A stretch of 64,000 nucleotides of DNA from an uncultured Dehalococcoidia bacterium (lineage in GTDB: Bacteria; Chloroflexota; Dehalococcoidia; Lucifugimonadales; GCA-2712585). The first letter of the stretch is position 1; each line of letters begins with the position of its first letter. The stretch covers positions 442,459-506,458 of the forward strand of contig OX638324.1 of assembly GCA_951812825.1 (NCBI GenBank), given 5' to 3'. Positions 34,966 to 64,000 of the stretch are shown here, piece after piece. The notes beneath the pieces are model-generated. The model was not told the origin of the DNA. It ran no database searches and was given only the letters and a program-made list of their open reading frames with translations. The position numbers were made by a program, and so were the translations under genes.

Positions 34966-34966
34966 T

Positions 34967-38148: not shown

Positions 38149-38158
38149 GAGATTCCTC

Positions 38159-41353: not shown

Positions 41354-41471
41354 ACTGCCTCACTCCACTCGCACGCCTCATCGCGCGGCCCCTGAGGTGA
41401 GGCCCGTAAGCAACCGGCGCCCGACAAAGCCCACTAACGCCATCGCCGCCTTCCGGGACTTGTTCTACAAC

Positions 41472-43133: not shown

Positions 43134-43135
43134 GA

Positions 43136-45004: not shown

Positions 45005-45093
45005 CCCTTCGAAAGTTGTCGTTGCGGCTGGATGCCCTGGTGGCGTTTAGGGCTTCATCCTGATGGAAGTATACACCCCTTTTCTAGGTTACC

Positions 45094-45960: not shown

Positions 45961-45966
45961 GGGATG

Positions 45967-47232: not shown

Positions 47233-47251
47233 TCCACTAGACGAATGCGCC
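47175..47251 (-). tRNA. tRNA-Glu (anticodon CUC), CCA encoded
   Basis: The reverse complement is GGCGCATTCGTCTAGTGGACTAGGACACCGCCCTCTCAAGGCGGAGATCACGGGTTCGAACCCCGTATGCGCCACCA. Its architecture parallels E. coli tRNA-Glu and the anticodon loop is CTCTCAA. Confidence 0.9.
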
Positions 47252-47283
47252 AACTGCGTTCGCCATTTTATCACACCTTTCTC

Positions 47284-47311
47284 TTGTCTACAAAACCGGC
47301 TGTAGTATAAT
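47284..47311 (+). promoter_or_regulatory. Sigma70-type promoter candidate for tRNA-Gln
   Basis: TTGTCT (47284-47289), 16-nt spacer, TATAAT (47306-47311), 18 nt before the tRNA 5' end. Confidence 0.6.
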
Positions 47312-47329
47312 CTTAGTGGCCGACCACAC

Positions 47330-47403
47330 TGCCGAGTGGTGTAGTGGTAGCACTCGTGACTCTGGATCACGCAACCCTGGTTCGAATCCAGGCTCGGCAG
47401 CCA
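47330..47403 (+). tRNA. tRNA-Gln (anticodon CUG), CCA encoded; putative ICE attachment site
   Basis: TGCCGAGTGGTGTAGTGGTAGCACTCGTGACTCTGGATCACGCAACCCTGGTTCGAATCCAGGCTCGGCAGCCA, with a U1-A72 pair and anticodon loop CTCTGGA. Confidence 0.9.
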
Positions 47404-47476
47404 CCACACTCTCTTTCTTATGCCAATTTTGGCCATTTTACGGCTCTTGCACGCCTAGCAATCGCATTAGCCTGTC

Positions 47477-47505
47477 TTGATTTGTCAAAAGCAATCCGAT
47501 AGAAT
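47477..47505 (+). promoter_or_regulatory. Promoter candidate for the integrase gene
   Basis: TTGATT (47477-47482), 17-nt spacer, TAGAAT (47500-47505). Confidence 0.45.
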
Positions 47506-47514
47506 CCCATAACA

Positions 47515-47536
47515 AATGTGGTACCAATGTGGTACC
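47515..47536 (+). repeat. Tandem 11-bp direct repeat (AATGTGGTACC x2) between promoter and int start
   Basis: Read directly. Each unit contains the palindrome GGTACC. The position fits an arm-type, operator-like site. Confidence 0.6.
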
Positions 47537-47568
47537 ATTACGGACAAGAGGCGAGATAAGAAGAGAGT

Positions 47569-48723
47569 ATGGCAAGACTAACAGCAACAAAAGTAAAGTC
47601 GCTGAAGAGGCCCGGACGCTACGGAGATGGCGCCGGACTCTATTTGGTAGTGAGACCCAGCGGCTCAAAAGCTTGGGTACAACGCATCGTAATTGACGGC
47701 AAGCGCAAGGATATTGGTCTAGGTGGTTTCCCGGCTATCGGCCTCAAAGATGCCCGAGCAAAGGCTTTGGCCAACCGCAACAATGTTGCGACCGGCGGCA
47801 ATCCAGTGGCGGCAAAGCGCAAGGCGACACTGCCTACTTTTGACGAAATGTCCATGAAGTACCTTGCCACCAACGCTCCGCGCTGGAAGAATACAAAAAC
47901 CAGCCAGAATTTCAAGCAGACCTTAGAGCGATACGCCCTTCCCATGCTGGGAGGAATGCGAATAGACAGAATTCAACGCAGCCATGTCCTGGACGTCCTT
48001 GACCCGATATGGACGTCAAAGCCGTCTATGGCTCGCAAGCTAAGACAGAGGCTACGGGCTATCTTCGCTTACGCAATGGCTCACCACGGAGAAATCGTCT
48101 ACAATCCCGCTGGCGATGTTATCAACGCGGCCCTTCCTCCTGTCCCTTCCGTAAAAGCGCATTTTCGGGCCTTGCCCTATGAAGAAGTGGAAGAGGCCCT
48201 AAAAATCGTCGGTGATTCCCGCGCGTCAATTGTGGCAAGGTCCTGCCTCAGGTTCCTGGTTCTCACTGCAGTGCGCTCAGGCGAAGCTAGGAACGCGACA
48301 TGGAATGAAATTGATCTCAACGCTGCTACCTGGACAATTCCTGGCGAGCGCATGAAAGCAGGCCGCGAGCATCGAGTACCTCTATCTCAGCAAGCCCTAG
48401 AAGTGCTTCAGTTGGTAAGAATATTGGATGACAATAGCGGACTAGTTTTTCCTAGCCCGAAGCGACTTGGACGCCCGCTTTCCGATATGACTCTAACCAA
48501 GCTGCTCAGAGACAATGGCCTCTCCGAACGCTCGACAGTCCATGGATTCAGGACCAGCTTCAAGACGTGGTGTATGGAACGAACTAACGTAGGCTGGGCA
48601 GTCGGTGAGTCCGCGCTGGCTCATTCGCTAGGCAATAGTACCGAGCAAGCCTATGCTCGTTCGGATCTGTTTGAAAAGCGGCGGGCCTTGATGCAAGCTT
48701 GGGCAGATTACTTGCTCGGCTGA
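47569..48723 (+). CDS. int: Tyrosine-type site-specific integrase, P4-like (DUF4102 N-terminus)
   Basis: MARLTATKVKSLKRPGRYGDGAGLYLVVRPSGSKAWVQRIVIDGKR.DIGLG is the P4-integrase N-terminus. Catalytic R (LTAVRSGEAR), HxxR (HGFRTSFKTW) and Y (EQAYARSD) are present. Confidence 0.9.
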   Translation: MARLTATKVKSLKRPGRYGDGAGLYLVVRPSGSKAWVQRIVIDGKRKDIGLGGFPAIGLKDARAKALANRNNVATGGNPVAAKRKATLPTFDEMSMKYLATNAPRWKNTKTSQNFKQTLERYALPMLGGMRIDRIQRSHVLDVLDPIWTSKPSMARKLRQRLRAIFAYAMAHHGEIVYNPAGDVINAALPPVPSVKAHFRALPYEEVEEALKIVGDSRASIVARSCLRFLVLTAVRSGEARNATWNEIDLNAATWTIPGERMKAGREHRVPLSQQALEVLQLVRILDDNSGLVFPSPKRLGRPLSDMTLTKLLRDNGLSERSTVHGFRTSFKTWCMERTNVGWAVGESALAHSLGNSTEQAYARSDLFEKRRALMQAWADYLLG

Positions 48724-48757
48724 ACCGATTGCTGCCTAAAAAATTGCAAAGGCTCAA

Positions 48758-48991
48758 CTAGCCAACCTGACTCCCCGCTACTGGTCGCGATTCGATCCAG
48801 GCCATGATGTCACTTGCCTTCCACCTCACGGCGCCGGGACCAATCTTCACAGGCCGTGGAAGATCACTTATTTCCATTAACCGATAGATTGAAGATCGAC
48901 TCAATCCGGTAATTTTCTCGACCTCTCGCCGTCTCAATAGTCTGTCTTGCAAAACTCCCTCCTCCTCATTGGTTAAGTTATTGCAGCGCAT
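48758..48991 (-). CDS. alpA: AlpA-family HTH regulator / excisionase-like protein
   Basis: LLRRREVEKITGLSRSSIYRLMEISDLPRPVKIGPGAVRWKASDIMAWIESRP. The start is uncertain. A TTG at 48952 preceded by GGAGGAGGGAG is a good alternative. Confidence 0.8.
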   Translation of the reverse strand: MRCNNLTNEEEGVLQDRLLRRREVEKITGLSRSSIYRLMEISDLPRPVKIGPGAVRWKASDIMAWIESRPVAGSQVG

Positions 48992-49765
48992 AGTTTGGCT
49001 TTCGGAAACAATCACTACACGGACCCCACAATTGGCAGAGGCTAGCCCGGATGGAAGAAAACATCTCTCCGAGACCGGGCGATGCCTGGGTTGGAGATGG
49101 AGCAAGTTCCCGTCTTCTGTACGCTGTGGATTTTGCCTTTGGTTCCATGCCTGAATTCTGAGGAGTCGGGTGATGAATTGTCATGGCTTGTGAGGGGGCC
49201 TCGCGTGAGAGGCCCCTCACCCGGTGTTTGCATTTATCGGCCTGATTTACGGATATTCCCGTACACCGTAATTGCAAGCTTGGATTAAGAGCCGTTTCTG
49301 TGCCAATTCGCTCCAGAATAGGACAATAATTGGTCCTCCAAGAGCGGTCGTTGACAGCACTGTGTGGTAAGGGATCATTCCCCCGTTTAGGGTCATTTTG
49401 GACGAGCTATCATCGTTAACTTGGCGTCAACGAGAGCAGGATTTGCTCCAAGGGAGTAATCGATTCAAGGGACAAGGCCTTGCTCGGAGACTTGGATGCC
49501 CCTACGGGATATAGACTATTAGGCAGGCCAACTCATGAGGGGCATGTCAAGAACGAGACCCGTGCGCAGGTGACGGGAATAAGGGGACAGCAATAATGGT
49601 TGACGCGAATCACCAATGGCGGAGAAGGCCACGTAGGTTGAGATTCCGTGTCCTAAACCGCCCGTAGGGGAGTTGGGCGAATGCCATTGCGGTGAATTGC
49701 GCCGCGGTTACTCTCGTGCCGTGGCTCTCCTGGAGACAGTTGTTGCAACGTAGGTTGCGGCGAAT

Positions 49766-50130
49766 ATCAATTCCGAGAGCCACCACGCAATGACACGTCG
49801 TCGCTGAAGCGTTTGAACAGTTCGGTGCGGTCGGCGATGAGGTCGGCCAAAGCCCGACCCAAGGCTTTGTCGTGCTCTATGCGGGCATTTCGAAGGTCAG
49901 AGTTGGCCATGGCGTTCTGGTATGCCTCATCCTAGACAACTTTCTTTGTCAGTTCTTCGGCAATCACCCTCTGAATCTTGTCCTGGTCCTTCCACTCGAT
50001 GTTGACGAAGCAGTCGTTGAACTCTCGGATGATGTTGGAGAGTCTGTCCAATTCGGGTTCAGGTTTTTGTCCGCCTCCACCGTCGGGGTCGGGATCAATC
50101 TCTGAGTCTTCGTCGGCAAGATGGATCTCC
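49766..50130 (-). pseudogene. hsdR: Type I restriction enzyme HsdR C-terminal remnant with in-frame TAG
   Basis: My translation is ...LDRLSNIIREFNDCFVNIEWKDQDKIQRVIAEELTKKVV*DEAYQNAMANSDLRNARIEHDKALGRALADLIADRTELFKRFSDD..., which matches the conserved HsdR C-terminal (DUF3387-type) region. Only ~120 codons are left, with a TAG at 49932-49934. Confidence 0.65.
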
Positions 50131-50182
50131 TACACCGCCTGTTTTTCAACGCGATAACTGTCCTTACTCGTGGCGGCGGTGT

Positions 50183-51100
50183 TTACCAACCACCTGCTGC
50201 CGACCTCCGACGGCTCAACCCCGGCGCACGGGCGGACATCACTTGCAGGTCTAGGATGGAGGATTCCCGTTCAGGCACGGCTATCACCACCACCTTGGCC
50301 AGCCGCCCCTTCCATAAGACGGGCCGGGCTACAACGGCGTGACCGTCTTGATTGACATACTGAGTCCCGCCACGGCGCATGGCGACATCCGCCAGTGATC
50401 TGGGGGAAGGAGGTCTACCCCACCTGGGCACGTCTCCCGTCTCCCCACTGAGGGCAGGGGAGTCGGGCGTGCCCATACCTCTGGTCCTTTTCACAACCGT
50501 AGCCCTCAGGGAGGGAGGCCCCGTCCAGCCGGCTGGGTCTCCCCTCTCCGTGCTTTCGTACAAGACCACCATCAGGGGCGGGTGGCGCACAACCTCCGCC
50601 AACCTCATGGCCACCGAGGCGTAGGAGCACCGGTACATTCTCTGGAGGGTCAGCACGTCCAGTCCCGACGCACGGGCCATCGCCATGAAGACCCCCGGCT
50701 GCATTAACACCGCCGCGGCGAACCGGTCCCCGTCGTCACATATCTTGCGCGTCGAATAGGAACTGCCGTACAGATCGAACAGGGCTTCGTGAACGATCTC
50801 GTAAACCTCGTGGAGCACCGTGCAGTCCCGGGCACCTGCCCACAGATCCTTGCGGTAGTGGATATGGTGCCCACCGCCGGGAGCGCTGTAGTGGATGCCT
50901 TTCATACTCTCCAGGTGTCTGCCCGTCACGTGTCCGAAGCCCGCCCGCCTCAGCAGAAGGGACAGCTCCTCCATGGTGGGACGGCACGACACCCCAAAGT
51001 AGTCCACGAAGGCCGCGGCCATCCACCCGGGATTGAGGGTCCGGCGGAGATGGACCCCTTCCAACAACAATCGACAGAAGCCGTAGAGTGTTCCCTTCAC
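50183..51100 (-). CDS. ImmA/IrrE-family metallopeptidase-like protein (atypical metal motif)
   Basis: TVLHEVYEIVHEALF...GDRFAAAVLMQPGVF...GLDVLTLQRMYRCSYASVAMRLAEV follows the ImmA/IrrE layout, but HExxH is replaced by HEVYE..H. A GTGA overlap couples it to the upstream XRE gene. Confidence 0.6.
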   Translation of the reverse strand: MKGTLYGFCRLLLEGVHLRRTLNPGWMAAAFVDYFGVSCRPTMEELSLLLRRAGFGHVTGRHLESMKGIHYSAPGGGHHIHYRKDLWAGARDCTVLHEVYEIVHEALFDLYGSSYSTRKICDDGDRFAAAVLMQPGVFMAMARASGLDVLTLQRMYRCSYASVAMRLAEVVRHPPLMVVLYESTERGDPAGWTGPPSLRATVVKRTRGMGTPDSPALSGETGDVPRWGRPPSPRSLADVAMRRGGTQYVNQDGHAVVARPVLWKGRLAKVVVIAVPERESSILDLQVMSARAPGLSRRRSAAGGW

Positions 51101-51537
51101 TGGAGCAGCCTCCTGTTGGTGAACCGCTCGTACATCTCAACGATGAACCGCTTGGCGTTCAGGGAGAGGGGGCCGTCGGGCCTAGTGCCTACCCGGAAGA
51201 CCGGGTCCGCCAGCACGTACTTGTAGGCCCTTTCCACCTCCAACGCCTCGTTGCTGTTGGGATCGGGTTTGGGGCCGTACCCGGCCCGCCTCAGCAGCTG
51301 GCGCAGGTCCACGTTGTATGTTTCCGCCAGCCCTCTGAGGACCTTTCGGCCAGGCCTGCGGTCGCCCCTCTCCAACTGGGACAGATAAGAGCTGGAGATG
51401 CCCGTCCTGCGGGTGATGTCCCTGAGGCTCAGTTCTCCTCTCAGTCTCTTGAGCAGGGGACCTATCTCCTCGTTGCTCTCTGCTTCGCTGACTCTCTCAG
51501 GACTGAGGTTGCCGTTGAACTCTTCCATCTCTTGCAC
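51097..51537 (-). CDS. XRE-family HTH transcriptional regulator (ImmR-like partner of ImmA)
   Basis: LLKRLRGELSLRDITRRTGISSSYLSQLERGDRRPGRKVLRGLAETYNV is a classic HTH_3 pattern. Confidence 0.85.
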   Translation of the reverse strand: MQEMEEFNGNLSPERVSEAESNEEIGPLLKRLRGELSLRDITRRTGISSSYLSQLERGDRRPGRKVLRGLAETYNVDLRQLLRRAGYGPKPDPNSNEALEVERAYKYVLADPVFRVGTRPDGPLSLNAKRFIVEMYERFTNRRLLQ

Positions 51538-51647
51538 CCCCTTCAGTCGTGGACACCACTATCGGTTTACTTGTCGCTCCGGGCCCATTCTTGGCCAACA
51601 GTTGGCTCTTAGTTGTTGGTTTATTGTTACACCATAGTAAGTGATTG

Positions 51648-51683
51648 TCAAGATATAGCCTGTTTCTTAGGATATATCCTTGA
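51648..51683. promoter_or_regulatory. Operator-like inverted repeat in the divergent regulatory region
   Basis: TCAAGATATA (51648-51657) faces TATATCCTTGA (51673-51683). It includes the perfect palindrome GGATATATCC (51670-51679) and lies in an AT-rich stretch between divergent HTH genes. Confidence 0.4.
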
Positions 51684-51804
51684 TTTATCCCCTCAGTATA
51701 GATACACTGATGCATACAGAACTTATCTTTCCTTTTTAGAAATACATATCGGCTTCACCCCTCGTGGCCATGCCGCCAAGGGCAAGACGAACTACCCATC
51801 GTGA

Positions 51805-52035
51805 ATGAAAAAGAACATGAAGCAAGAACTCACCGAAGAACAGGATAGGAGACGGCTCAAAGGGCTGAGGATCCTGGCCCGCATTGTCGTGCGCCATCGC
51901 CTCGCCCATCCCAAGATGTACGTCGACGGCGCAAATGAGGATGGGGCCTCTTTGGTCTCCAGAGACAGTGTGTCTGACGTTGAGCAAAAAACTGGCAAGG
52001 AGCAGAAAGGTGAAGCGCAGAAGACCCTCCTATAG
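51805..52035 (+). CDS. Hypothetical small basic protein
   Basis: 76-aa ORF and first + strand ORF after the regulatory region. No motif recognised. It overlaps the next gene start by 26 nt. Confidence 0.3.
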   Translation: MKKNMKQELTEEQDRRRLKGLRILARIVVRHRLAHPKMYVDGANEDGASLVSRDSVSDVEQKTGKEQKGEAQKTLL

Positions 52036-52249
52036 GGTGAAGCTCGTTCGTGATAAGGTCTGGAAGATTATGCACCGACGCAACATCTCCCAGAACGAGT
52101 TGGCCAAGCTTTCCGGCATGTCCTCGGGTTACCTCTCCCTGCTGATGAGGGGGCTGCGCAGTCCATCGCCGGGGCGACGCAGACAACTGATGAGGGCCCT
52201 GGGAGTAACCAGGTTCGATGACCTGTTCATGCTGGAGACGGTCTCATGA
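52010..52249 (+). CDS. Small HTH (XRE-like) DNA-binding protein
   Basis: I prefer the GTG at 52010, 7 nt after AAGGAG. The core is NISQNELAKLSGMSSGYLSLLMRG. ATGA overlap with the next gene. Confidence 0.6.
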   Translation: MKRRRPSYRVKLVRDKVWKIMHRRNISQNELAKLSGMSSGYLSLLMRGLRSPSPGRRRQLMRALGVTRFDDLFMLETVS

Positions 52250-52578
52250 AGAGCGGCCTCCTACCATCTCACTTAATCGTCGACGACGGGCTGATACCCA
52301 CAGATTTCCCCCAGAGGCTGAACGCCTTCAAAGAAAGGACGGGACTATCCTGGGACGCTCTGGCGGGATGCCTGGGCGTGGACCCCCGACAGCTTCAGCG
52401 TTGGAGGAAGGGCACCAAGCCCAGCGGAGACGGGCTATGCGCCCTCATCCTGCTTGCCGCTCGCATACCCGGCGGCCTTCACACTCTGATGGAAGTCCAC
52501 GTTCTCCCACCGTCCGGGGTGTATCAACCGCCCCTGGCCTCTGGATTCGGAATGAGCGACGAAGGGGAGGAGGCGTAG
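52246..52578 (+). CDS. HTH-like protein, tandem paralog 1
   Basis: FPQRLNAFKERTGLSWDALAGCLGVDPRQLQRWRKGTKPSGDGLCALILLA parallels the next ORF. Confidence 0.6.
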   Translation: MKSGLLPSHLIVDDGLIPTDFPQRLNAFKERTGLSWDALAGCLGVDPRQLQRWRKGTKPSGDGLCALILLAARIPGGLHTLMEVHVLPPSGVYQPPLASGFGMSDEGEEA

Positions 52579-52582
52579 AGGA

Positions 52583-52876
52583 ATGGGAGTTCAGCGAAAG
52601 ATACACAGGCCCGTGCAGTTCGATTTCCCTGAAGATTTTTCCGAAAGGCTTGAACGGTTCAAGGAGGAGAGCGGGCTGAGCTGGAAGGCACTTGCACGCC
52701 TTATGGGTGTGAAGCCCTACCGGGTCTGGAAATGGCGCCAGGGCACCCGTCCCAGTTCGGCCCATCTCTTCCTTCTCCTGACCTTAGCTGACGCCATGGG
52801 ACTAAGGGAGGATATCCTGATGCGACCAGTCAAAGACCTGCCCGCGGGGGTCAACTCGGAGGAGCTGCGCCGGTGA
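52583..52876 (+). CDS. HTH-like protein, tandem paralog 2
   Basis: FPEDFSERLERFKEESGLSWKALARLMGVKPYRVWKWRQGTRPSSAHLFLLLTLA has the same F(P)..F..RL..FKE..GLSW.ALA...GV.P....WR.GT.PS pattern as 52246-52578. Confidence 0.6.
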   Translation: MGVQRKIHRPVQFDFPEDFSERLERFKEESGLSWKALARLMGVKPYRVWKWRQGTRPSSAHLFLLLTLADAMGLREDILMRPVKDLPAGVNSEELRR

Positions 52877-53602
52877 GGCGGTTCACGGTCATCAGCCTGG
52901 GCGGGGGCGTCATGGTCGCAGAGGGGACCTTCGATGCGGTCTCCGACTGTTCCATCTCCGCCGACACCCACTGGGAGCCTCCCAGCATATAGGAGCATCT
53001 GGCGTGGTTGAAACACAAACCCTCCTTCTCTCCCCACGTTGTGGACAATAGTCTTAGTCTTCGGCAGAACGTGATGGACCTCACCAACCACTTGGACTCA
53101 ACCAACTACAAGATCAGGCCCATTAGAAGGAAGATTCGCGAATTGTTGAGCCTGAGGTTTAGACAACATGTCTCCTCTGCCACTTTAGTGGAACTATGGC
53201 TCGGCATCTCGACCGACGAGGCCCGCCGGATTAGGAACTCCAGGGACCGGTGGATCGTAATTCGCTACCCGCTCATCGAGGTAGGCATGTCCCAGTAGGG
53301 ATTGAATGGAATGGTGGAAGGCGCATTACGACAGGCCCTTGGAACGCTCGGTCTGGGTGGGCTGTCCCTTCCAGTCCCGCCCAAAGTGGGTGGAGACCAA
53401 GTGGCGGCGGCTTGGGCTGTTCGCCGAATCGGTGGAGATTGGTGAGAGGCTGCAGGGAGGGTCAGCCTACGTGAGGGCACCCTATCTTCATCCCCTGCGC
53501 ATCCCCCTAGCCGGGGCTGTGTCCAAAGATGAGGCCAGCCTGGAATCGGTGGAATCGCAGGACAGTTTCGGTATCGAGTGTGAGGGTCACTGCGGCGTCT
53601 GA
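52873..53602 (+). pseudogene. Phage/ICE-type PAPS-reductase-like protein, decayed (in-frame TAG plus frameshift)
   Basis: My translation is VRRFTVISLGGGVMVAEG...CSISADTHWEPPSI*EHLAWL...DSTNYKIRPIRRKI...WLGISTDEARR...RYPLIEVGMSQ*. The second frame gives EWWKAHYDRPLERSVWVGCPFQS. It matches the family pattern S.GGGVQS / FADT.WEP...YEHL.WL / C...YKI.PI / GIS.DE..R / YPL / CP, with a TAG at 52990-52992 and a frame change near 53298. Confidence 0.55.
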
Positions 53603-53663
53603 CTAGAAGTATGATTGTCAACCTACTTCCAATCTCTGCCTTCATTCAGTCTATGTCAACAGT

Positions 53664-56115: not shown

Positions 56116-58688
56116 TCCTCACGCTCCTTCGCAGCTGGCCCTTCAGGGGATGCTCCAGGTTTCTGGTCACGCTTGGTCCGCACCTTCTGGCGACTAGGTT
56201 TAGGTGGCTCGACCTCCTTCTTCGCTTTCTTCCCGCCGACAAGCTGCTTCATCTCCCGGCGGTATTTCTCCGCCAGGCTGCGCAGGCCGGACTCCCTCTC
56301 CGATATCTCCCCGGACGTCACAAGATAGCCCAGAGCTGCGGCGCGGATGCGGGCCGCTACTTCTGGGTCTCCCTGATCGGGCTTTCTCGTCATCATGGAG
56401 AAGGTTGGAAGGCGCTCCTTCCCCACCGTGGCTCTCACGTAGCAGTGGTGGACGGGGAGCGACACCATGTCCTCCTCAGTGATCCGGTCCTTTCCCAATT
56501 CCCACACAAGCTGTCTTGCGTCGGAACCCGCCACCTGGAACACGGCCAAACATCCCACGTTGGCCAGCAGGGTGTCCCGCATGGTGGTATAGAGGTCGTC
56601 CAGCTTGGCCAGGCTCTGGGTGGCCAGGATGAAGCTGGCTCCAAACTTGCCCAATTCAGAGAGCATGGACTCGTAGTCGACGCCCGGCATGGACTGCATC
56701 TCATCTACCACGACGAGGGCGCCGCGCCTCTTCTCGAGGGGCATTCTGCCCTGTTCCCTGATTACTGAGTCGACCAGATTGAGCAGGGAGGCACCCACCA
56801 GGGCCGCCACGTCCCTGCCGACGACGCCCTGGGAGGTGGACACCAGCAGGATGCCCCCATCAAGAATCGTCTCCCTCAGGTCTATGGTGGAACGGGACTG
56901 TCCCAATATCGCCCTCGCCCTCACAGAGGAGGCGTAGTAGGAGAGGCGGGTCTGGACCGGGGCGAGAGAGTCGGCCTTGTAGTCGCGGCTCCAGCCGTAG
57001 AAGGTGTTCGCCCACCACTCCAGGATGTAGGGGTCGTCGACCTTGTCGAGGACAGTGGTCCGGAAGACGGGGTTGGAAAGGACTTTCAGGCCGTCCAAGA
57101 TTGTGTACTGTTCGGCGGACTCCATCTGCTTGTTGGCCTCGTGCAGGGTCTTGACGGTAAACTCCAGGATGGACTGCATCCTGGGGCCCCACTGGTCCCA
57201 AAGGCCTTTCGCCACCCGCACCACCGAGTCGGCGGTGCGGTCCCTGTCGGAGAAGATCCGGGTGTCAATCAAATTGATGCCCGGCGCTCCCCGCTCGTCA
57301 GCCAGGTCGATGAGCTTCACTTTATTGACGAGAGACTCGGGCACCTGCTCCAGCAGGCCGTTGACCAGGTCTGCGTGGGGATCCACCACGATGATGGCGT
57401 CGCCGTCCCTACCCGCCGCCTTTTGCCGCATCTTGTGAGATACCAGATGGTGCATGAGGGTGGACTTGCCCATGCGGGTGCGCGCTATGTAGAGGTGATG
57501 CCTTCGGAGGAGGTCATCAGGGAAGTGAATCATTCTTGGCGTACCGGAGGTGGTGTCGCCAACGTGGGCGCCGCCACTCACGCTGCCAGCCGTGGGCAGC
57601 AGCATCTTTGCCCCGGAACGGGCCACGAGGGGCGTCTCGTCCTTTGCTCCCGGCGGGTGCCACAGGGCGGCAGCCTCCCTCACACCAATGACACTGCGGC
57701 CGCCGAAGAATCCGGGACGCGAGGGATGCAGGTCCTCCGGGTTGGGAACCATGGGTTGCATCCTTCCCACCCTGAATCTGGCTCCCGCCGGATTGTCGTA
57801 GTGTCGGTAGGCCGCCGCCACCTGTTCCAGCAGATGCTTGGCCCTCAGGGGACGGGTGCCCCTGGGCAGCATGGCGGTGACCTGCACCTCGGCGTCGAAG
57901 GCCATCCGGGCCACTTTCTCCCGTATCAGCAGAGGATCGTATACCCGGTTGCGGGACTTCCTCCACCAGTGCCATATCCAGCCTCCCACGGCCAGTCCGA
58001 GGGCTGATCCTGCGCCAAGGAGGGCAGCTTTCCATATCTCGCCGCTCTGAACCCAGAGATAGCCCCGTATGGCAATAAGGGCTCCAATGCCAAGAACCGC
58101 CATCGTTACGCCGTCCATCCGCAGGAGTCCGGCCTGCTGGGCGGACTCGCTGGATTGAGGAACCGGATTACGATGGGCTTTCTCCATGTACCCCTGGGAC
58201 CAGTCGGGTCCCAGGGAATTAAGTTTCAGCCTGGCCACAATCCGCTCTCCCTCCTGCAGTTCTGACAGGGCAGCCAGTAGGGCCATCATAGGGTCCGAGC
58301 CAGGGTCCAGCAGGTCGTCGTCCCGGAATGTGCGCAGGGACACGTACTCGGGCCCTGAGGCCCTGAGGGTCATGCCCCAGGCTTCTTCTCCCTCGCCCAG
58401 GCGTAGGGGGTCGTTCTTGGGTGACACCTCAGCTATTCTGGCCTGGGGATATCGCACGGCTATCTGGCCGCGCACCACCCGGTCGTCGATACAACGGGCC
58501 ATAAGGGACACGCCGTCCGCGCTGCCGGCCAGCTCCAGGGAGAAGGGCTCCGGCACGGCGATGGACCCCAGCAGGTTCTCCACCCCCAGAAGCGTGCGCT
58601 CCCCCGTACGAGGCGGCGTCACCTCCAACAACCCGGGTCTTTTCGGTTCGGGATCTCCAAAGAGCATCTTCTTCAACTTCAATTTCAT
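56112..58688 (-). CDS. Type IV secretion coupling protein-like ATPase (VirD4/TraG/TraD class, FtsK/HerA superfamily)
   Basis: 858 aa, AAGGAGGG RBS. Two TM helices lie around residues 200-240. Walker A is ARTRMGKST and Walker B is LVVVDEMQS. The tail FGASFILATQSLAKL is T4CP-like. Confidence 0.8.
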   Translation of the reverse strand: MKLKLKKMLFGDPEPKRPGLLEVTPPRTGERTLLGVENLLGSIAVPEPFSLELAGSADGVSLMARCIDDRVVRGQIAVRYPQARIAEVSPKNDPLRLGEGEEAWGMTLRASGPEYVSLRTFRDDDLLDPGSDPMMALLAALSELQEGERIVARLKLNSLGPDWSQGYMEKAHRNPVPQSSESAQQAGLLRMDGVTMAVLGIGALIAIRGYLWVQSGEIWKAALLGAGSALGLAVGGWIWHWWRKSRNRVYDPLLIREKVARMAFDAEVQVTAMLPRGTRPLRAKHLLEQVAAAYRHYDNPAGARFRVGRMQPMVPNPEDLHPSRPGFFGGRSVIGVREAAALWHPPGAKDETPLVARSGAKMLLPTAGSVSGGAHVGDTTSGTPRMIHFPDDLLRRHHLYIARTRMGKSTLMHHLVSHKMRQKAAGRDGDAIIVVDPHADLVNGLLEQVPESLVNKVKLIDLADERGAPGINLIDTRIFSDRDRTADSVVRVAKGLWDQWGPRMQSILEFTVKTLHEANKQMESAEQYTILDGLKVLSNPVFRTTVLDKVDDPYILEWWANTFYGWSRDYKADSLAPVQTRLSYYASSVRARAILGQSRSTIDLRETILDGGILLVSTSQGVVGRDVAALVGASLLNLVDSVIREQGRMPLEKRRGALVVVDEMQSMPGVDYESMLSELGKFGASFILATQSLAKLDDLYTTMRDTLLANVGCLAVFQVAGSDARQLVWELGKDRITEEDMVSLPVHHCYVRATVGKERLPTFSMMTRKPDQGDPEVAARIRAAALGYLVTSGEISERESGLRSLAEKYRREMKQLVGGKKAKKEVEPPKPSRQKVRTKRDQKPGASPEGPAAKEREE

Positions 58689-58747
58689 TTTTCTTCCCTC
58701 CTTTTGATTGCTTCAGTTATCCACGGTTCCGAATTGATCGGCATCCA

Positions 58748-61057
58748 TCACGCCTTGCGATGACTTCCCGGCCTCCACTCGATAACCTCCGTTTCTTCCG
58801 GAGTGGCCTCGATGCGTATGGGGAACCGGTTGCCCAGGGCCAGCAGGAGCCCGTCCCCCCTGGGGCAGGACAGCAACCATCGCTGAAGCTCCTCCGGCAG
58901 GTCGAAGGCATCGCCTACGGTGCCCACCGCCGCCGCGTCCTGCTGCAACAGCAGCTTGAAGGCGGCGTTTTGCAGCAGCGCCCTTCCGCTGTGGCCCGTG
59001 ATGGCTCTCGAGGTGTCCTCGGAGAGCAGGTCCTGCACGTCCTGGGTGATGAACTGGAGTCCCAGCCGATGTTTTCTAGCCCGCTTGGCCATGGAGACCA
59101 TGAAGGCGGCTCCCTCCGGGTGTTGCATGATGCTCCATACCTCATCCACCACCAGCAGGCGGGGCTTGGGGTCCTGGGCAGCGGCGGCCCACACAGTCTC
59201 GGTGCAGACCATGGCCGCAGCGGGACGCAATTCCGGCTCCAGCAGCCTCAGGTCGAAGACTGTGACCAGGGCCTCGTTGCCCAGCAGGTCGTCCCCTTCG
59301 TCGGAGAGGAGATGTCGGAGGCTACCGGTGGCGAAGGGCCTCAGCAGGTGGGCCAGGCCAGGATCGCCGTTCTCGTCCTCCTGAAGGTAGGTGTAGAAAT
59401 CCCGGAAGCCGGTACGCTTCCTGGGTGTGGAATAGTAGCCCGCCAGGGCGTGGTCGAGGGACGCTCTCCTATCCGCGGAGAGCTTCTCGCCAACCATCAC
59501 CTCAATGAGCCTCCTCAGGCTGCCTATGCGCTGCAGCATCTCCTCGGAGTCTCCCTTGTCGATGACGAAGGGGTTCATGCCCTGGCCCGGCACTCCGGGG
59601 GACAACACCCGGCCTCCCGCCGCTCGGGCCATGTCCGCGTACTCCCCTTCGGGGTCAATGACGTAGGCCGTTACGCCCCTGCAAATGCCCCTCAGCACTC
59701 CGAGCTTGGTCGAAAAACTCTTACCGGAGCCCGACCGGGCCAGCACCGCGGTGTTGGCGTTGAGGTGAGTGCCGTCCCAGGGGTCGTAGACCACTGGTGC
59801 ACAGGCCCTCATGTCTATGCCGTACAACGTTCCGCTTCGCGTATCCATATCAGGAGGCGAGAAGGGGAAGATCCTCATCAGCGACGAGGTGTCCAAAGTC
59901 CTCCACACTCCCACGGCGTTCAGGGCCAGGGGCAGCGTGGACATCAACCCCTCCCGCTGCCTGAAGGAGAGGTTGTCGAGTTTCCCCAGGGTGGCGGCGA
60001 AGTGGGCCTTCGCCCTCTGGGTCATCTCCCTAAGGGTCTTTTCGTCCTTTGCGTGGAGGGTGACGGAGAGAGAGGCGTGGAATAGCCGCTCCCTCCCCCG
60101 CTGCACCTGGTCCCTGAGCCGTGTCACGTCCTCCAGGGCAATCTCCGCTTCGGGGGACATGCTCCGTCCCCGCTTGAAGGACAAAGACTGGGCCGACTCG
60201 AAGCGCACCTTCTGCCACTCCAGGGTCCTTGCCGCCTGGTCAGTGGGTATGGCCCCCAGGTGGATGGAGAGGTCCATGGGCGCTCCCGCCGCCATCAGTC
60301 CCTGTAGAAAGCCGGGGGAGAGGGACCGGGGCCACTTCCCCAGTTGTAGGGAACGGACCAGAGTCTCACCCACCCGTACATGGTGACGATGCATCTCCAC
60401 CTCCACCTGGAGGTCCTCATCCATAGTTGAGGGAGAGCCGCCAAGGGCGGTGGATACGAAGAACATCTTCAGCTGTCTGCCCGTCAGGTGGTGTACGGAT
60501 AGCCCCGTCCTGGACAGAAGGCCCCGCAGTTCGTCAACCCGGGGGAACTCACACACGGCGTAGAAGCGCCGGTCCAAGATGCCGTCCCGGCTCTCCAGCT
60601 CCTTGAGCAACCGCCTCAAGGATTCCGACGCCGCCTCCGTCTGCGCGGTAAGATTCGCCGGCTGGGCATATTTCAGCTTTCTTCGTAGTTGTCCCAACCT
60701 TGGCTGATGCTGCCTGATAAGCAGCTGTACCGGGAAGTCCAAGGCGTTCAGGGCTCCGGCAAAGGACCCCAGCTTCGGCTCGTCAATCTCCAGCCCCATC
60801 ACCTCGCACACACCCACCTTCACCCCGTCCAACCTGACGGGCCCGTCCTTCTCCAGGTGGGACAGCATGTAGAACAGGGGCAGGTCGGGAGGCGGCTTGG
60901 GCGCCGGCGTGTCAGCAATTTCTGCACCGTCGGCGGTGCCGGAAGGGTCTGCCTCTCGTTCTGAAGTACTCCGGCCTACGCAATTCCAAACAAGCTCAAA
61001 TAGCTTTTTCAATGATCTAGTCTCCTCTTTGGTTTCAGGGACTTTGGAAGGAAACAA
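58748..61057 (-). CDS. virB4: VirB4/TrsE-like conjugative T4SS ATPase
   Basis: Walker A ARSGSGKSF, Walker B LLVVDEVWS, HRLGLQFITQDVQDLL. The start is uncertain (TTG at 61057 or ATG at 60868). Confidence 0.85.
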   Translation of the reverse strand: MFPSKVPETKEETRSLKKLFELVWNCVGRSTSEREADPSGTADGAEIADTPAPKPPPDLPLFYMLSHLEKDGPVRLDGVKVGVCEVMGLEIDEPKLGSFAGALNALDFPVQLLIRQHQPRLGQLRRKLKYAQPANLTAQTEAASESLRRLLKELESRDGILDRRFYAVCEFPRVDELRGLLSRTGLSVHHLTGRQLKMFFVSTALGGSPSTMDEDLQVEVEMHRHHVRVGETLVRSLQLGKWPRSLSPGFLQGLMAAGAPMDLSIHLGAIPTDQAARTLEWQKVRFESAQSLSFKRGRSMSPEAEIALEDVTRLRDQVQRGRERLFHASLSVTLHAKDEKTLREMTQRAKAHFAATLGKLDNLSFRQREGLMSTLPLALNAVGVWRTLDTSSLMRIFPFSPPDMDTRSGTLYGIDMRACAPVVYDPWDGTHLNANTAVLARSGSGKSFSTKLGVLRGICRGVTAYVIDPEGEYADMARAAGGRVLSPGVPGQGMNPFVIDKGDSEEMLQRIGSLRRLIEVMVGEKLSADRRASLDHALAGYYSTPRKRTGFRDFYTYLQEDENGDPGLAHLLRPFATGSLRHLLSDEGDDLLGNEALVTVFDLRLLEPELRPAAAMVCTETVWAAAAQDPKPRLLVVDEVWSIMQHPEGAAFMVSMAKRARKHRLGLQFITQDVQDLLSEDTSRAITGHSGRALLQNAAFKLLLQQDAAAVGTVGDAFDLPEELQRWLLSCPRGDGLLLALGNRFPIRIEATPEETEVIEWRPGSHRKA

Positions 61058-61379
61058 GGCCTCCCAGCAGCAGCGTGACCACTGCCTTTGCCGAGAGCAC
61101 CAGGACCAGCCCCACCACCGCCATGATCACGGCGGTCCTGGCGCCGCCCCCGTCGCTTCCCTCGCCGCCCTCGGCCATCAGCATGAATCCCGCCCAGACG
61201 ATGGCGAAGAGGCAGAGGCCCGCGGCGGCATAGGTCATGGCCGTGAGAATCTGGTCGAAGGCCTCGGCCATATCCTCGAAGGCCGCCAGCTTCTCCTGCG
61301 CGTCCGCGCCCGTCGTGACCAGCGCGACGCCGGCCAAGAGGATTGCCGCAATGCCCCGTCTCACCAGGGCCACTCCCAT
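61035..61379 (-). CDS. Small secreted two-TM protein, VirB2/TrbC pilin-like
   Basis: ORF 61035-61397. ATG at 61379 follows GGAG. It has a signal peptide (MGVALVRRGIAAILLAGVALVTTGADA) and then two hydrophobic helices separated by a Gly/charged loop. Confidence 0.5.
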   Translation of the reverse strand: MGVALVRRGIAAILLAGVALVTTGADAQEKLAAFEDMAEAFDQILTAMTYAAAGLCLFAIVWAGFMLMAEGGEGSDGGGARTAVIMAVVGLVLVLSAKAVVTLLLGGLVSFQSP

Positions 61380-63118
61380 CCCAGCTCCTCGAACCACTGG
61401 CCCACCTCACCGCTGTCCGCGGGCCTCTGCTCCGATAGGGGTAGTTCAGTGATCCTGTCTGGGAGTATCAGCACCCCATAGGGTTCGTCGGACGCTATGC
61501 CGGTTGCCATGTCCAGGGTTTCCGTTCGGCTGCGAATGGCTGGTGCTCTCCGCTCCACATCCGCCTTCACGTGCTCGGGGTGAATGATGGGGATAGTCAC
61601 GCTCTTGAGAATCTCCTGGCTGGGAATAGACAGGGTGGCGGAGATGGTGTGCTCCGTGGTGGTGCCGTCGCCGTGCTCCACCTCCACCTTCTTGCTGACG
61701 GTCTGGCTCGTGCCGGGACGGGTGAGGGTCACCGTCGTCGCGCGTTGTTCCGTGCGCTCCGCATGGTGGGTGAGCCGGGTCAGGGGCGGCAGCGGTATGC
61801 TGAGGCTTGTCTCCGTCTCCACAACGATGAACACGGGAAAGACGGCCTTTGCCGCGTCCACGTCCAATCGGAATGAAGTCTCCCCGTTGGGGACCAGGGG
61901 TACGGCGGTGCGAGAGCCCTTGGTCACGGCGGAGACGACTCCGGTGACAGCTGTCACATCGGCGTCCATGAGGGACATCTCTCCCACGCTCACGTGGCCC
62001 GCCACCGCGGGAAGGGCTATCAGCTTCTTCACCCTATCCTCGCACTCCGACTCCACCACCCCTTCGATGGCGCCGGGAGTCCATCCCAGGGAAATCAGAC
62101 TCAGGTCACAGATCTCCCCCTCGGCCTTGGGCAGGGGATGAGGAATCTGGTCATTGGCAATAGAAAAGGCTCCCGCCTGTCCGAGGCTGTCCTCCCAGGA
62201 GAAGGTGAAAGAGGGAAAAGATCCCTCCAGGGGCAGCTCGTAGGCGACCCCCTCCCCCTCCACCAGCTGGGTCGCAGCCCAGGAGACGAGCTCCGTTCCG
62301 AACCGTCCCCCGTAGGCCTGTATGCTTATGTGCAGGTCCGTGGCTGCCCTGAGGGCAACGACGGCTTTGTCGCCGGTGACGGTCAGCCCCTCCAAGTATA
62401 GGCGCCGTCCCGGCACGGGGTCGAAAACTTCGAACTCTATCTCCTCCCGCCAGTCCTCGTCGGCCAGAGTTGGCTGAGGCAGTGCGACGGCTGTTGCCGC
62501 TAGGACAGCGGCAAGCACTGCCGCCCACAGCCTTGGAAATCTCTTGACACGGTCCTTCTTGTACTCCGAGTCTTTGTTGTTGGTATCCTCCGGCGATTGC
62601 CGGCGGTCCTTGCCAAACCACCGGTGGGGTCGGAAGGGCATCCGCCCGTTTTTCCGGTCGCCACTGCTCCTCTTCCTGCGCGGTATCCGGCGACGCGCCG
62701 ATTCCATCATTCCGCCCAGCCGACGAGCATTGCGCCTCGCCCGCATGGCCAGCAGGATCAGTGGTCCGGGGCTGTCTTTCGCCGTCTCCACCCGCACGGG
62801 CGGCTCGCTGCGAAGCAGCTGAGACACTGGCCCCACGTAGCGCCTCGGTCCCAACCGGTACCTCAGCAGGTCGGCGACCACCAGGGGCAGCCGCCGACCT
62901 GCTATCTTTCCCACCACCATGGCAATGCCGAAGAGGCCGAACAGGACGGATAGTCCCATCCTCACCCCCGAAGGCCCCACGGGGGCGTAGCGGTATACGC
63001 CGTAAGAGAGGGCGCATACCGCCACCATCGCCACTATCTGCGGAAAGGTGAACCAGAGCAGCACCCGGTCCTCCGCCTCCACGTGGGTGGGTACTTCGTG
63101 TTCTCTCATATTCTCCAC
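61361..63118 (-). CDS. PrgI-family (VirB3-like) conjugal transfer protein with long C-terminal extracellular extension
   Basis: GGAGGTGGAG RBS. The N-terminus VPTHVEAEDRVLLWFTFPQIVAMVAVCAL..., with a second TM, matches the PrgI pattern. It is followed by a basic linker, a third TM (LWAAVLAAVLAATAVAL) and a ~390-aa beta-rich domain. Confidence 0.6.
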   Translation of the reverse strand: MENMREHEVPTHVEAEDRVLLWFTFPQIVAMVAVCALSYGVYRYAPVGPSGVRMGLSVLFGLFGIAMVVGKIAGRRLPLVVADLLRYRLGPRRYVGPVSQLLRSEPPVRVETAKDSPGPLILLAMRARRNARRLGGMMESARRRIPRRKRSSGDRKNGRMPFRPHRWFGKDRRQSPEDTNNKDSEYKKDRVKRFPRLWAAVLAAVLAATAVALPQPTLADEDWREEIEFEVFDPVPGRRLYLEGLTVTGDKAVVALRAATDLHISIQAYGGRFGTELVSWAATQLVEGEGVAYELPLEGSFPSFTFSWEDSLGQAGAFSIANDQIPHPLPKAEGEICDLSLISLGWTPGAIEGVVESECEDRVKKLIALPAVAGHVSVGEMSLMDADVTAVTGVVSAVTKGSRTAVPLVPNGETSFRLDVDAAKAVFPVFIVVETETSLSIPLPPLTRLTHHAERTEQRATTVTLTRPGTSQTVSKKVEVEHGDGTTTEHTISATLSIPSQEILKSVTIPIIHPEHVKADVERRAPAIRSRTETLDMATGIASDEPYGVLILPDRITELPLSEQRPADSGEVGQWFEELGWEWPW

Positions 63119-63121
63119 CTC

Positions 63122-63445
63122 CTAGCTCTTGGGTCCGTCGGTCGGGGGATCTGTGGGTGATCCGGGGTTGTAGCTGCTCTCCGTGGGGTCCGGGATGTCG
63201 ATGTCCACGGGGGATCCCACCACCGCGTCCATCACCAGCTCCACCACGCCATAGGCCACCATGGCCAGGATGATGCCCGCCAGGGCCGTCATCATGGCGC
63301 TCTTTCCCTTCTCCATCTGGTGGGGCGCACCGGAGGCCGTCAGGTACATGTAGGCCCCGTAGACGAAGAAGCCCACCCCCACGGCCCCCACTATCCCCAG
63401 CATGATCCCCACCAGGTTCGATATGGTCTGTGTCAGGTCTTCCAT
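63122..63445 (-). CDS. Small two-TM protein, second VirB2/TrbC pilin-like candidate
   Basis: ORF 63122-63520. ATG at 63445 follows GAGAGGAG. The sequence is MEDLTQTISNLVGIMLGIVGAVGVGFFVYGAYMYLTASG...MTALAGIILAMVAYGVVELV with a Pro/Asp-rich tail. Confidence 0.5.
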   Translation of the reverse strand: MEDLTQTISNLVGIMLGIVGAVGVGFFVYGAYMYLTASGAPHQMEKGKSAMMTALAGIILAMVAYGVVELVMDAVVGSPVDIDIPDPTESSYNPGSPTDPPTDGPKS

Positions 63446-63600
63446 TTCTTCTTTTTCTCCTCTCTCTAGGATTGTCTGGTCGTCGTTCGTGGTCCTTGTA
63501 TTTGTGTCCTCTATTTGCACATCTCTTCACCGCCTTGCTTTCGTTCCGTTGAGGCGAGCCGTTGCTCGCTTCTTGTGTTTCATCGTGGTAGTTGCGAGGT

Positions 63601-64000
63601 CTATTCGCTGCTGCTCCGGGGAGTGGCTACCCCAGCACTACTGCTAGCTCCGCCTGAAGGGGTGGCCATCTCCGCCATGGACCTGATGCCGCTCGCAGCA
63701 GTGGACAACCCCGCGCTGGCGGCGGCTCCCGCCGCCATGCCCGCTGGTCCTCCACCAAGTCCTCCCGCCACCATGCCGATGGTCTTCGCCGACCTGATCA
63801 TGGTCCCCGGCAGGTTCAACCCGAAGTAGAGGGTGCTCACCCACGCGTCGAAGGTGCCCACGTTGCCCAGCAGCGAGGGAATCCTGGTGGCCATGTACAC
63901 GAAAGCCACCGACAGCAGCAGCTTCCACACCAGGTCCTGCACGGGTTCGTAGGCCTGGATCGCCGCCACCTCCTGCAGGAAGCCGAAGCCCAGGGCCAAC
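63601..64000 (-). CDS. Membrane protein C-terminus, VirB6/TrbL-like (5' part beyond window)
   Basis: The frame is open to the window edge. It has hydrophobic helices followed by a Gly/Ala/Ser-rich tail (GGLGGGPAGMAAGAAASAG...), as in TrbL/VirB6 C-termini. Confidence 0.4.
   Translation of the reverse strand, partial: LALGFGFLQEVAAIQAYEPVQDLVWKLLLSVAFVYMATRIPSLLGNVGTFDAWVSTLYFGLNLPGTMIRSAKTIGMVAGGLGGGPAGMAAGAAASAGLSTAASGIRSMAEMATPSGGASSSAGVATPRSSSE

Follow-up and report, generated by a model that had tools for sequence, protein, structure and literature searches.

A 64,000-nt stretch of contig OX638324.1 (positions 442,459-506,458 of the forward strand), referred to below as the window, contains at the 3′ end of a tRNA-Gln gene what is probably—with a probability that we put at roughly 0.8—an integrative conjugative element (ICE) that belongs to a very large, strongly conserved family of compact ICEs, found in several copies per genome in soil Dehalococcoidia. 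The genes that define an ICE occur together at this locus: a recombinase gene adjoining the attachment site and genes for a relaxase, a type IV coupling protein (T4CP), the ATPase VirB4, and further proteins of mating-pair formation (MPF). This reading rests on domain content, operon structure, family-wide conservation, and ends bounded by tRNA genes. All coordinates given below are window positions.

Domain assignments were judged by Pfam gathering scores and NCBIfam cut-offs, RNA genes were called with ARAGORN and Rfam, and conservation was followed in a tblastn synteny map and an all-against-all profile of open reading frames (ORFs). The related loci and contigs compared with the window carry the labels L001-L091, among which L002-L081 are the 80 family loci; counts of family loci refer to these, which are the best 80 of at least 566 VirB4-encoding stretches from a scan of one genome per GTDB species. 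L082 and L083 are ENA scaffolds, L084 is a 1.17-Mb contig of a metagenome-assembled genome (MAG), and L085 is a JGI contig. L086 and L087 together give 30.8 kb of one tRNA-Gln variant, and L090 and L091 are contigs from other samples.

The T4SS-relaxosome operon

The genes predicted to serve DNA transfer form a single string on the minus strand, in the transcription order VirB6-like protein, pilin 1, a 582-aa protein, pilin 2, VirB4, T4CP, a Replic_Relax protein, and a 257-aa protein (Table 1). The ORFs of the element in the window are all full length apart from the VirB6-like gene, which the window end cuts, and the GC content is 0.62-0.64 across the genes of the type IV secretion system (T4SS), as compared with 0.53-0.58 in the flank. 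All core genes, that of the integrase included, are under purifying selection, with ratios of nonsynonymous to synonymous substitution rates (Ka/Ks) of 0.1-0.4 against eight relatives: ~0.10 for VirB4, 0.15-0.24 for the T4CP, 0.22-0.41 for the relaxase, 0.10-0.16 for the integrase, and 0.22-0.39 for the 582-aa protein, for which one near-identical pair was uninformative at 1.04.

An earlier note on this DNA, made from the sequence alone, had read a minus-strand operon of VirB6-like, two pilin-like, VirB4, T4CP, and Replic_Relax genes, and searches with hidden Markov models (HMMs) bore this out. Both ATPases matched Pfam families, VirB4 and T4CP, respectively. In the case of VirB6, the assignment was made through the full-length versions (327 aa) in L001 and L085, which match TrbL_3 and TrbL; the part encoded in the window is 94% identical to the L001/L002 protein. 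An overlap of the GTGA type, as likewise proposed in that note, was seen where the T4CP and relaxase genes join. Candidate Walker A (RMGKST) and Walker B (VVVDEMQ) motifs of the T4CP were read by eye in the translation. Pilin 1 had a sole NCBIfam match, to the pilin-like Mbov_0395 family of Mycoplasma ICEs, at 35.7 bits against a cut-off of 40. In the relaxase candidate, the match to PF13814 covers only the C-terminal half of the profile (positions 80-190), and MarR_2 was matched at 30.3 bits. PF13814 (Replic_Relax) has been equated with MobC (PMC5357655) and placed in the PD-(D/E)XK fold (PMC3424549).

The 582-aa protein, the gene for which is preceded by GGAGGTGG, resembling a ribosome-binding site, had been described as PrgI-like. 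The description suits, weakly, the N-terminal ~90 aa of what is in fact a fusion protein. The match to PF12666 (PrgI) scored 18.5 bits with a gathering score of 27 (E 0.003; profile positions 2-89 of 91), and hhalign aligned the family profile of the 582-aa protein to the bona fide PrgI in the syntenic operon of Embleya (described below) over residues 5-74 (E 1.8e-4, probability 49%). The AlphaFold model (mean pLDDT 64.7; 80-92 in the ectodomain) shows two helices forming a membrane hairpin, a disordered linker of basic character, another transmembrane helix (the third), and ~300 aa of tandem immunoglobulin (Ig)/FN3-like beta-sandwiches, and a fold search returned only generic FN3, Ig, and macroglobulin-domain matches. 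Across the family, the N-terminal hairpin is almost invariant and the ectodomain is ~55% identical, a pattern that would fit a conserved channel contact combined with a variable surface part.

The 257-aa protein had been assigned to DUF3800. A direct comparison with DUF3800 (PF12686) gave no match even at E up to 10, and the direct call was rejected on that account; the assignment was regained through homologues. Specifically, a phmmer search of 1.84 billion representatives found 251 homologues, and DUF3800 was matched by 30 of the 36 that were aligned (best E 1e-18). The consensus of the DUF3800 family starts YIDES, and the window protein reads YVHEAES. The gene is accessory, occurring only in a minority of the family (L003, L004, L050, L060, L062, and L072-L075).

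Integration end and regulatory genes

The integrase gene starts 165 nt past the CCA end of tRNA-Gln, in agreement with the earlier note; ARAGORN and Rfam concur on the tRNA, and all three domains of a P4-type integrase (arm-DNA-binding, central, and catalytic) exceed their Pfam gathering scores. Inspection of the translation by eye, without alignment, picked out VRSGE, HGFRTSF, and AHS...AY as candidate catalytic motifs. Between the tRNA and the integrase gene, a tandem 11-nt repeat is a candidate arm-type binding site for the integrase. The AlpA-like gene that had been noticed after the integrase gene was confirmed, and lies on the minus strand; its product is likely an excision or regulatory factor. 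With respect to the proposed XRE/ImmA pair, the XRE member is clear from its HTH_31 and HTH_3 matches, and its gene overlaps that of the 305-aa partner by 4 nt, but the Peptidase_M78 match of the partner falls below threshold. A canonical HEXXH motif was not seen by eye in the translation of the 305-aa protein, which reads HEVYEIVHE, and its assignment as a metallopeptidase is weak. The small helix-turn-helix (HTH) paralogues belong to the family core, being kept in 77/80 loci with a copy number that differs among elements. Two non-coding stretches inside the element (49230-50183 and 52876-53664, ~0.8-0.95 kb) contain short direct and inverted repeats; they are candidates for regulatory regions or for the origin of transfer (oriT), and nothing conclusive was found there.

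Prophages and satellites, too, typically have a P4-type integrase, AlpA, and an XRE/ImmA-like switch at a tRNA gene. It is nonetheless hardly credible that a prophage or phage-like island occupies this locus: the core is made up entirely of T4SS and relaxosome genes, and this reading was rejected after no capsid, terminase, portal, or tail domains were found in the element's ORFs in the window or in the 80 related loci.

For an ICE, the domain content suggests the following course of events. The integrase, probably with the help of the AlpA-like protein, would excise the element from, and insert it at, the 3′ end of tRNA-Gln, and the XRE repressor, its ImmA/CapP-like partner, and three further HTH proteins would control induction. 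A MOB_C-type (Replic_Relax) relaxase would nick an oriT, and the T4CP would then pass the DNA to a minimal monoderm-type channel formed by VirB4, VirB6, and, with its PrgI/VirB3-like hairpin, the 582-aa protein. The surface or contact part would be provided by the two VirB2-like pilins and by the Ig-like ectodomain of the 582-aa protein.

Table 1. Features of the tRNA-Gln element and of the neighboring tRNA-Glu island, in window positions
Feature	Position	Strand	Basis and remarks
tRNA-Gln(ctg)	47330-47403	+	ARAGORN and Rfam; 3′ end is the integration site (tRNA-side junction)
Junction region between tRNA-Gln and integrase gene	47404-47568	.	Contains tandem 11-nt repeat ACAAATGTGGT / ACCAATGTGGT at 47512-47533
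P4-type tyrosine integrase, 384 aa	47569-48723	+	Arm-DNA-bind_3 72, Phage_int_M 76, Phage_integrase 72 bits
AlpA-family small HTH protein	48758-49105	-	Phage_AlpA PF05930, E 7e-18
ImmA/CapP-like protein, 305 aa	50183-51100	-	Peptidase_M78 19.7 bits (threshold 22); CapP E 2.5e-4
XRE-family repressor-like HTH protein	51097-51537	-	HTH_31, HTH_3; CapH E 4e-5
Second XRE-family HTH gene	51884-52249	+	HTH_3 E 4e-8; conserved family-wide, neighboring the relaxase module at most family loci
Two tandem paralogous small HTH genes	52246-52578, 52583-52876	+	~50% identical to each other
Divergent DUF3800-family protein, 257 aa	53664-54437	-	Assigned via homologues
Relaxase candidate	54415-56115	-	Two winged-HTH regions and Replic_Relax; PF13814 40 bits (threshold 25.3)
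T4CP, 858 aa	56112-58688	-	TrwB_AAD_bind 37 bits, TraG-D_C 26.5 bits
VirB4-family ATPase, 754 aa	58748-61012	-	TraC_F_IV, AAA_10, P-loop_TraG; TTG start at 61012
Pilin 2, VirB2/TrbC-like	61035-61397	-	TrbC (PF04956) 30.1 bits (threshold 27.9); T4SS_pilin 28.3 (threshold 26.6)
582-aa fusion protein	61361-63109	-	N-terminal ~90 aa PrgI-like, weakly (PF12666)
T4SS pilin 1	63122-63520	-	T4SS_pilin PF18895, 47.9 bits, above gathering score
VirB6/TrbL-like polytopic membrane protein	63601 to beyond 64000	-	C-terminal 132 codons; cut by window end
tRNA-Glu(ctc)	47175-47251	-	ARAGORN and Rfam; divergent neighbor of tRNA-Gln
tRNA-Glu island, 17,056 bp	30122-47177	.	Separate island inserted exactly at CCA end of tRNA-Glu; not part of the tRNA-Gln element
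Serine recombinase pseudogene	45974-47181		Last gene of tRNA-Glu island; lacks residues 1-125 (catalytic domain), frameshift near 46829
Two near-identical inverted IS3-family copies, ~1.27 kb	30134-31399, 39734-40999		Terminal repeats TGAGGTGGACCC / TGAGGTAGACCC

A family of related elements

Homologues of the window VirB4 form >1,379 clusters at 90% identity; the best 120 are all 80-94% identical to it, many of them on Mb-sized contigs, and one named family member is annotated as coming from a Chloroflexota MAG. An identical VirB4 protein is encoded on a 2.47-Mb contig, probably that of the window itself. The best 80 of the VirB4-encoding stretches in GTDB species genomes all lie in long-read MAGs named 'Dehalococcoidia bacterium', with the top match of that scan at 93%. 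Among these 80, five copies occur in OZ244718.1 (L006, L008, L018, L056, and L067), four in OZ240222.1, and three in several other genomes.

A universal core, present in 72-80/80 loci, is syntenic in both the tblastn map and the ORF conservation profile. It encodes a divergent ~262-287-aa protein, a secreted ~204-aa protein, VirB6, a pilin, the ~580-aa protein, a second pilin, VirB4, the T4CP, and the relaxase, and further includes the XRE gene and the small HTH paralogues; relaxase and T4CP are each found in 79-80/80 loci. The next gene encodes a large serine recombinase in 63-64/80 loci, and beyond it there is an abrupt loss of all conservation. Any gene called by ARAGORN at this break is a tRNA gene on the opposite strand, with its 3′ end toward the element. 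The tRNA genes targeted are Val(gac), Val(cac), Ala(tgc), Ala(ggc), Ala(cgc), and Ile(gat), and also Gln. Close copies in different genomes align over 19.3-21.3 kb, the right end falling exactly at the CCA end of the tRNA. A tyrosine integrase and AlpA, as in the window, are found in L067; in L015 and L055, only the AlpA-like gene is in common. As judged from these gene orders, the family shares a T4SS-relaxosome core and swaps its integration modules, with a serine recombinase in most members and a tyrosine integrase here. Mobility of the family is supported by the varied tRNA targets, the several copies per genome, and the sharp ends of homology.

Identity to individual relatives varies along the element: VirB4, T4CP, and relaxase are 94%, 74%, and 52% identical, respectively, to those of L002, and 86%, 80%, and 79% identical to those of L003. 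Such differences indicate that the channel and relaxosome modules have separate histories, with recombination between family members.

Several features of individual family members were also observed. Copies are sometimes adjacent, as with L078 and L080, which lie head to head at a distance of ~21 kb. The elements are also assembly breakpoints, given that a copy is interrupted by the assembly end in several cases (L004, L010/L034). In two loci (L067 18979-20968 and L068 20335-22259), the element is situated at a tRNA-Ala(tgc) gene directly downstream of a 16S rRNA gene, a position that implies integration beside or inside the spacer of an rRNA operon. The serine-recombinase ORF reaches or passes the element boundary in L005 (17818-19689), L013, L039, L063, and others, and there overlaps the tRNA 3′ end, so that the recombinase takes its C-terminal tail and its stop codon from the target DNA, and excision would alter both. 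Copies with different targets have different tails.

The left arm exists in two variants. One, present in ~36-47/80 loci and seen in L087 (1-5200), contains genes for a Toprim primase, a Rad52/Rad22-like protein, a TSCPD-domain protein, SSB, and RadC, and stretches upstream from the T4SS for >10 kb; in the second variant, which is short, an XRE gene comes last. In L072, a tRNA-Ser(gct) gene (2690-2766) lies within the left arm, and may mark a boundary or a tandem insertion. L011 (OZ244722.1) contains the T4SS genes from the 204-aa gene to the T4CP, without the conserved relaxase, HTH, and recombinase genes or the flanks, and may be a truncated or relocated module.

Ends, inheritance, and mobility of the tRNA-Gln element

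Near-identical copies of the element occupy the same site in independent metagenomes (L082, L083, and L085; 97.3-97.5%). On L082 and L083, the integrase homologue is 99% identical, window positions 47178-58698 are matched at 97.3%, and the chromosome is matched at 97.9%. L085 matches 55929-64000 at 97.5% nucleotide identity and runs 3,837 bp further, through the rest of VirB6 (327 aa in all) and genes for a secreted 204-aa protein, a divergent 262-aa protein, and an 80-aa membrane protein, into a partial further gene. The element thus runs past the window, as the earlier note had it, given that the VirB6-like gene is cut at 64000 and that L085 adds further genes. In L002, the closest relative, conservation stops ~5.8 kb past the point matching 64000, from which a length of ~22 kb is probable for the whole element; the non-conserved gene there could be cargo. 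The same tRNA-Gln with an adjoining integrase gene is found in L082, L083, L084, and L086, and includes distinct, shorter variants: the integrase is 88% identical in L084 and 64% identical in L086/L087, the left arm of which (>10 kb) contains primase, Rad52-like, SSB, and RadC genes.

A number of results weigh against the interpretation as a mobile conjugative element. The right attachment site (attR) would be marked by a second copy of all or part of the tRNA-Gln 3′ end (GGTTCGAATCCAGGCTCGGCAGCCA), and no such direct repeat was found in the window, in the next 3.8 kb, as given by L085, or in readable relatives. Likewise, a search for tRNA 3′-end repeats of at least 11-12 nt in 14 tRNA-bearing loci gave only chance-sized matches, and no tRNA-like remnants were found at the left boundaries of family members. 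The empty tRNA-Gln site for which the earlier note had proposed to look was not seen in relatives, and every examinable one was occupied; this sample is biased, the relatives having been found through element genes. The element and the chromosome diverge alike between strains (97.3-97.5% versus 97.9%), which indicates vertical inheritance since the strain split rather than recent transfer. No oriT was identified in the element, and neither a VirB8-like protein (PrgL/TrsD) nor a VirB1-like peptidoglycan hydrolase was found by Pfam or NCBIfam in the core proteins, including the beyond-window proteins of L001 (203 and 287 aa) and L085 (204 and 262 aa). Finally, the ImmA and PrgI matches lie below curated thresholds.

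Some of these observations would be expected of an immobilized ICE—that is, a fixed remnant, or an element mobilizable only by another, with genes that look intact and are inherited with the chromosome. The equal divergence of element and flank, the occupied tRNA-Gln in every relative examined, and the lack of an attR in the DNA read all suit such an element, and decay of a recombinase does occur in the same genome, in the neighboring tRNA-Glu island. We nevertheless regard immobilization as unlikely. The ORFs are full length, and the core genes, including that of the integrase, remain under purifying selection. Three element variants with different accessory regions stand at the same tRNA-Gln in three genomes, for which repeated integration is the easier explanation. 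The family is moreover multi-copy, with many tRNA targets. For a functional ICE, attR would lie beyond the window end, and the tRNA-Gln element would presumably be self-transmissible.

Class of the secretion system

The best NCBIfam model for VirB4 was that of the CD1110 family (conju_CD1110) of Bacillota, at 224.6 bits against a cut-off of 325, followed by that of the VirB4 of Mycoplasma ICEs, and the sole PDB sequence match was Thermoanaerobacter VirB4 (4AG5; E 6e-27). Among 72,556 plasmid records, the nearest VirB4 homologues all come from monoderm phyla, at ≤35% identity; they include those of Embleya/Streptomyces (34-35%), Geobacillus, Ca. Chlorohelix, a Chloroflexota phototroph (29.5%), and CD1110-type Bacillota plasmids. 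Assignment of the T4SS to the monoderm type is supported by the best NCBIfam model, the PDB match, and the nearest annotated operons, which are those of Actinomycetota, Bacillota, and one Chloroflexota plasmid. With respect to the more specific claim of the earlier note, that of a Firmicutes/Actinobacteria-type MPF class, the system is monoderm-type by these three measures, but the scores fall short of the curated cut-offs for MPF-FATA, and two VirB2-like pilins are atypical. Two traits of that class are missing: no VirB8/VirB1-like component was detected in the core proteins, and instead of a pilin-free state there are two pilins above gathering thresholds.

Mycoplasma ICEs (Mbov_0395 / Mbov_0397) supply the second-best VirB4 model and the sole NCBIfam match of pilin 1, with all scores far below the cut-offs. 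These ICEs have minimal T4SSs in wall-less cells, and integrate by means of a DDE transposase without tRNA specificity. Dehalococcoides cells also have no peptidoglycan wall, and the undetected hydrolase would fit a wall-less host of this kind.

The best VirB4 match is on the linear plasmid NZ_CP108778.1 of Embleya sp. NBC_00896 (Streptomycetaceae), with related clusters in Streptomyces. The Embleya operon has the same order: a TrbL-like gene, a PrgI-family gene (349 aa, with a C-terminal extension; 64.6 bits), a small gene, VirB4, T4CP, and Replic_Relax. It differs in that its VirB4 is 35% identical over 69% of the length, in that it continues with an NlpC/P60 hydrolase gene, of which the core of the Dehalococcoidia family gave no sign, and in that no pilin genes were recognized. 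Furthermore, it is plasmid-borne rather than integrated, is uncharacterized, and is typed as 'non-mobilizable' by MOB-suite. The MPF-FATA systems of Bacillota (CD1110 elements of Clostridioides and PrgH/I/J of pCF10) resemble the window element in VirB4 type, a PrgI/VirB3-like hairpin, a VirB6-like protein, and a T4CP, and ICEBs1 shares with it integration at a tRNA gene and an XRE/ImmA-like pair. The window element differs from these systems in the score of its VirB4, which is under the family cut-off, in having two VirB2-like pilins and a fusion of PrgI with an Ig-like ectodomain, and in that VirB8 and a hydrolase went undetected. Gram-positive T4SSs have been stated to have no VirB2 pilins (PMC12102498).

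The same mixture of a FATA-related VirB4, PrgI, VirB6, and VirB2-like pilins (PF18895, PF04956) is known from the T4SS of Patescibacteria, a phylum placed as sister to Chloroflexota, in which the pilin genes are sometimes in arrays (PMC12102498); the likeness is one of gene content. The clusters in Patescibacteria mostly lack a relaxase and are thought to have been co-opted (PMC12102498), and a T4SS co-opted for a non-conjugative function, such as DNA release or uptake or contact-dependent delivery, could also be envisaged here. The shared gene content—VirB4, VirB6, PrgI, and VirB2-like pilin arrays (PMC12102498)—and the variable Ig-like surface domain would agree with such a function. However, relaxase and T4CP are near-universal in the Dehalococcoidia family and are translationally coupled to the channel genes, unlike in most Patescibacteria clusters, and a site-specific recombinase is likewise universal, with the cluster ending at tRNA genes. 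The universality of relaxase and T4CP makes a non-conjugative T4SS very unlikely, and conjugation remains the preferred function. In composition, the T4SS lies, as far as its genes indicate, between the Gram-positive systems and the Patescibacteria system.

The neighboring tRNA-Glu island

A second, separate island is inserted at the divergent tRNA-Glu gene. It is missing in L082 and L083 (97.9% identical), and the same left junction is present in L090 and L091, indicating that the island is polymorphic in natural populations. Its cargo includes ABC transporter genes, a GH3-family gene, and an enolase-superfamily fusion, with zero T4SS genes. The repeated core at its ends is TGGCGC (~6 bp), of which only TGG is repeated in the window, owing to a 1-nt difference; a core this short fits a serine recombinase. 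Indeed, the last gene of the island is the remnant of one, which is 58% and 40% identical in two segments to the serine recombinase of the ICE family, and the frame of which continues past the island end, on the antisense strand of tRNA-Glu. Two inverted insertion sequences (ISs) of the IS3 family are also present, and no matching target duplications were found for either copy; the left copy starts 12 bp inside the left junction of the island, suggesting a later IS-mediated rearrangement.

The ssrA islands of Dehalococcoides mccartyi belong to the same class, with a ~540-aa large serine recombinase by the 3′ end of a tRNA-like gene (PMC3146451). In gene geometry, this layout matches that of most members of the ICE family and that of the window's tRNA-Glu island. 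The ssrA islands differ in having no conjugation genes and in their 20-bp repeat (PMC3146451), as compared with the ~6-bp core of the tRNA-Glu island.

Host lineage

The window contains a complete bacterial 16S rRNA gene (8215-9727; Rfam), which is 84.5% and 84.0% identical to the 16S genes in the Dehalococcoidia MAG loci L067 and L068, respectively. Among 709 records of the plasmid collection with 16S matches, the best full-length match was that of Thermomicrobium roseum (Chloroflexota), at 79%, with all others at ≤78%. The chromosome beside the element is syntenic with L084, at 80-87% identity. A host among the Dehalococcoidia-like Chloroflexota is well supported by these comparisons, which bear out the Chloroflexota-like lineage deduced in the earlier note from the linked 16S gene at 8.2-9.7 kb; the nearest 16S genes are those of Dehalococcoidia MAGs. 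What we take to be the target of the Chloroflexi probe CFX1223 is matched exactly in the 16S gene, and that of GNSB941 with 2 mismatches; both served as leads only, and were not used as support.

Implications

ICEs and monoderm T4SSs are already known as kinds. New are the phylum of the host, a family as large and as conserved as this one, the make-up of the T4SS (with its pilins, PrgI-Ig fusion, and undetected VirB8 and hydrolase), and the interchange of serine and tyrosine recombinase modules. To our knowledge, conjugation has not been characterized in Chloroflexota. A full-text literature search returned no paper tying Dehalococcoidia to conjugation and a relaxase, and the classic ICE and T4SS surveys checked omit Chloroflexota; the family is apparently undescribed. 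Work on Dehalococcoides islands left open how islands without conjugation genes are transferred (PMC3146451).

The window offers a concrete candidate for a conjugative system in this lineage, one that is compact (~20 kb), under strong purifying selection, and represented by hundreds of copies in long-read Dehalococcoidia genomes. Furthermore, with its two types of recombinase (serine and tyrosine) and its wide choice of tRNA targets, the family can serve as a natural experiment in the exchange of modules.

A bolder proposal, which we consider possible but doubtful, is that the ICEs of Dehalococcoidia are an unrecognized, pilus-bearing branch of monoderm conjugation, related to the T4SS that was retained and co-opted in Patescibacteria but still conjugative themselves. 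If so, the VirB2-like pilins and the PrgI-Ig fusion would stand in for the hydrolase and the VirB8 scaffold of Gram-positive systems. Gene exchange in soil Dehalococcoidia would then rely chiefly on these ICEs, with their up to five or more copies per genome and their exchangeable serine or tyrosine recombinase modules, and the ICEs could also help the non-conjugative serine-recombinase islands of Dehalococcoidia.

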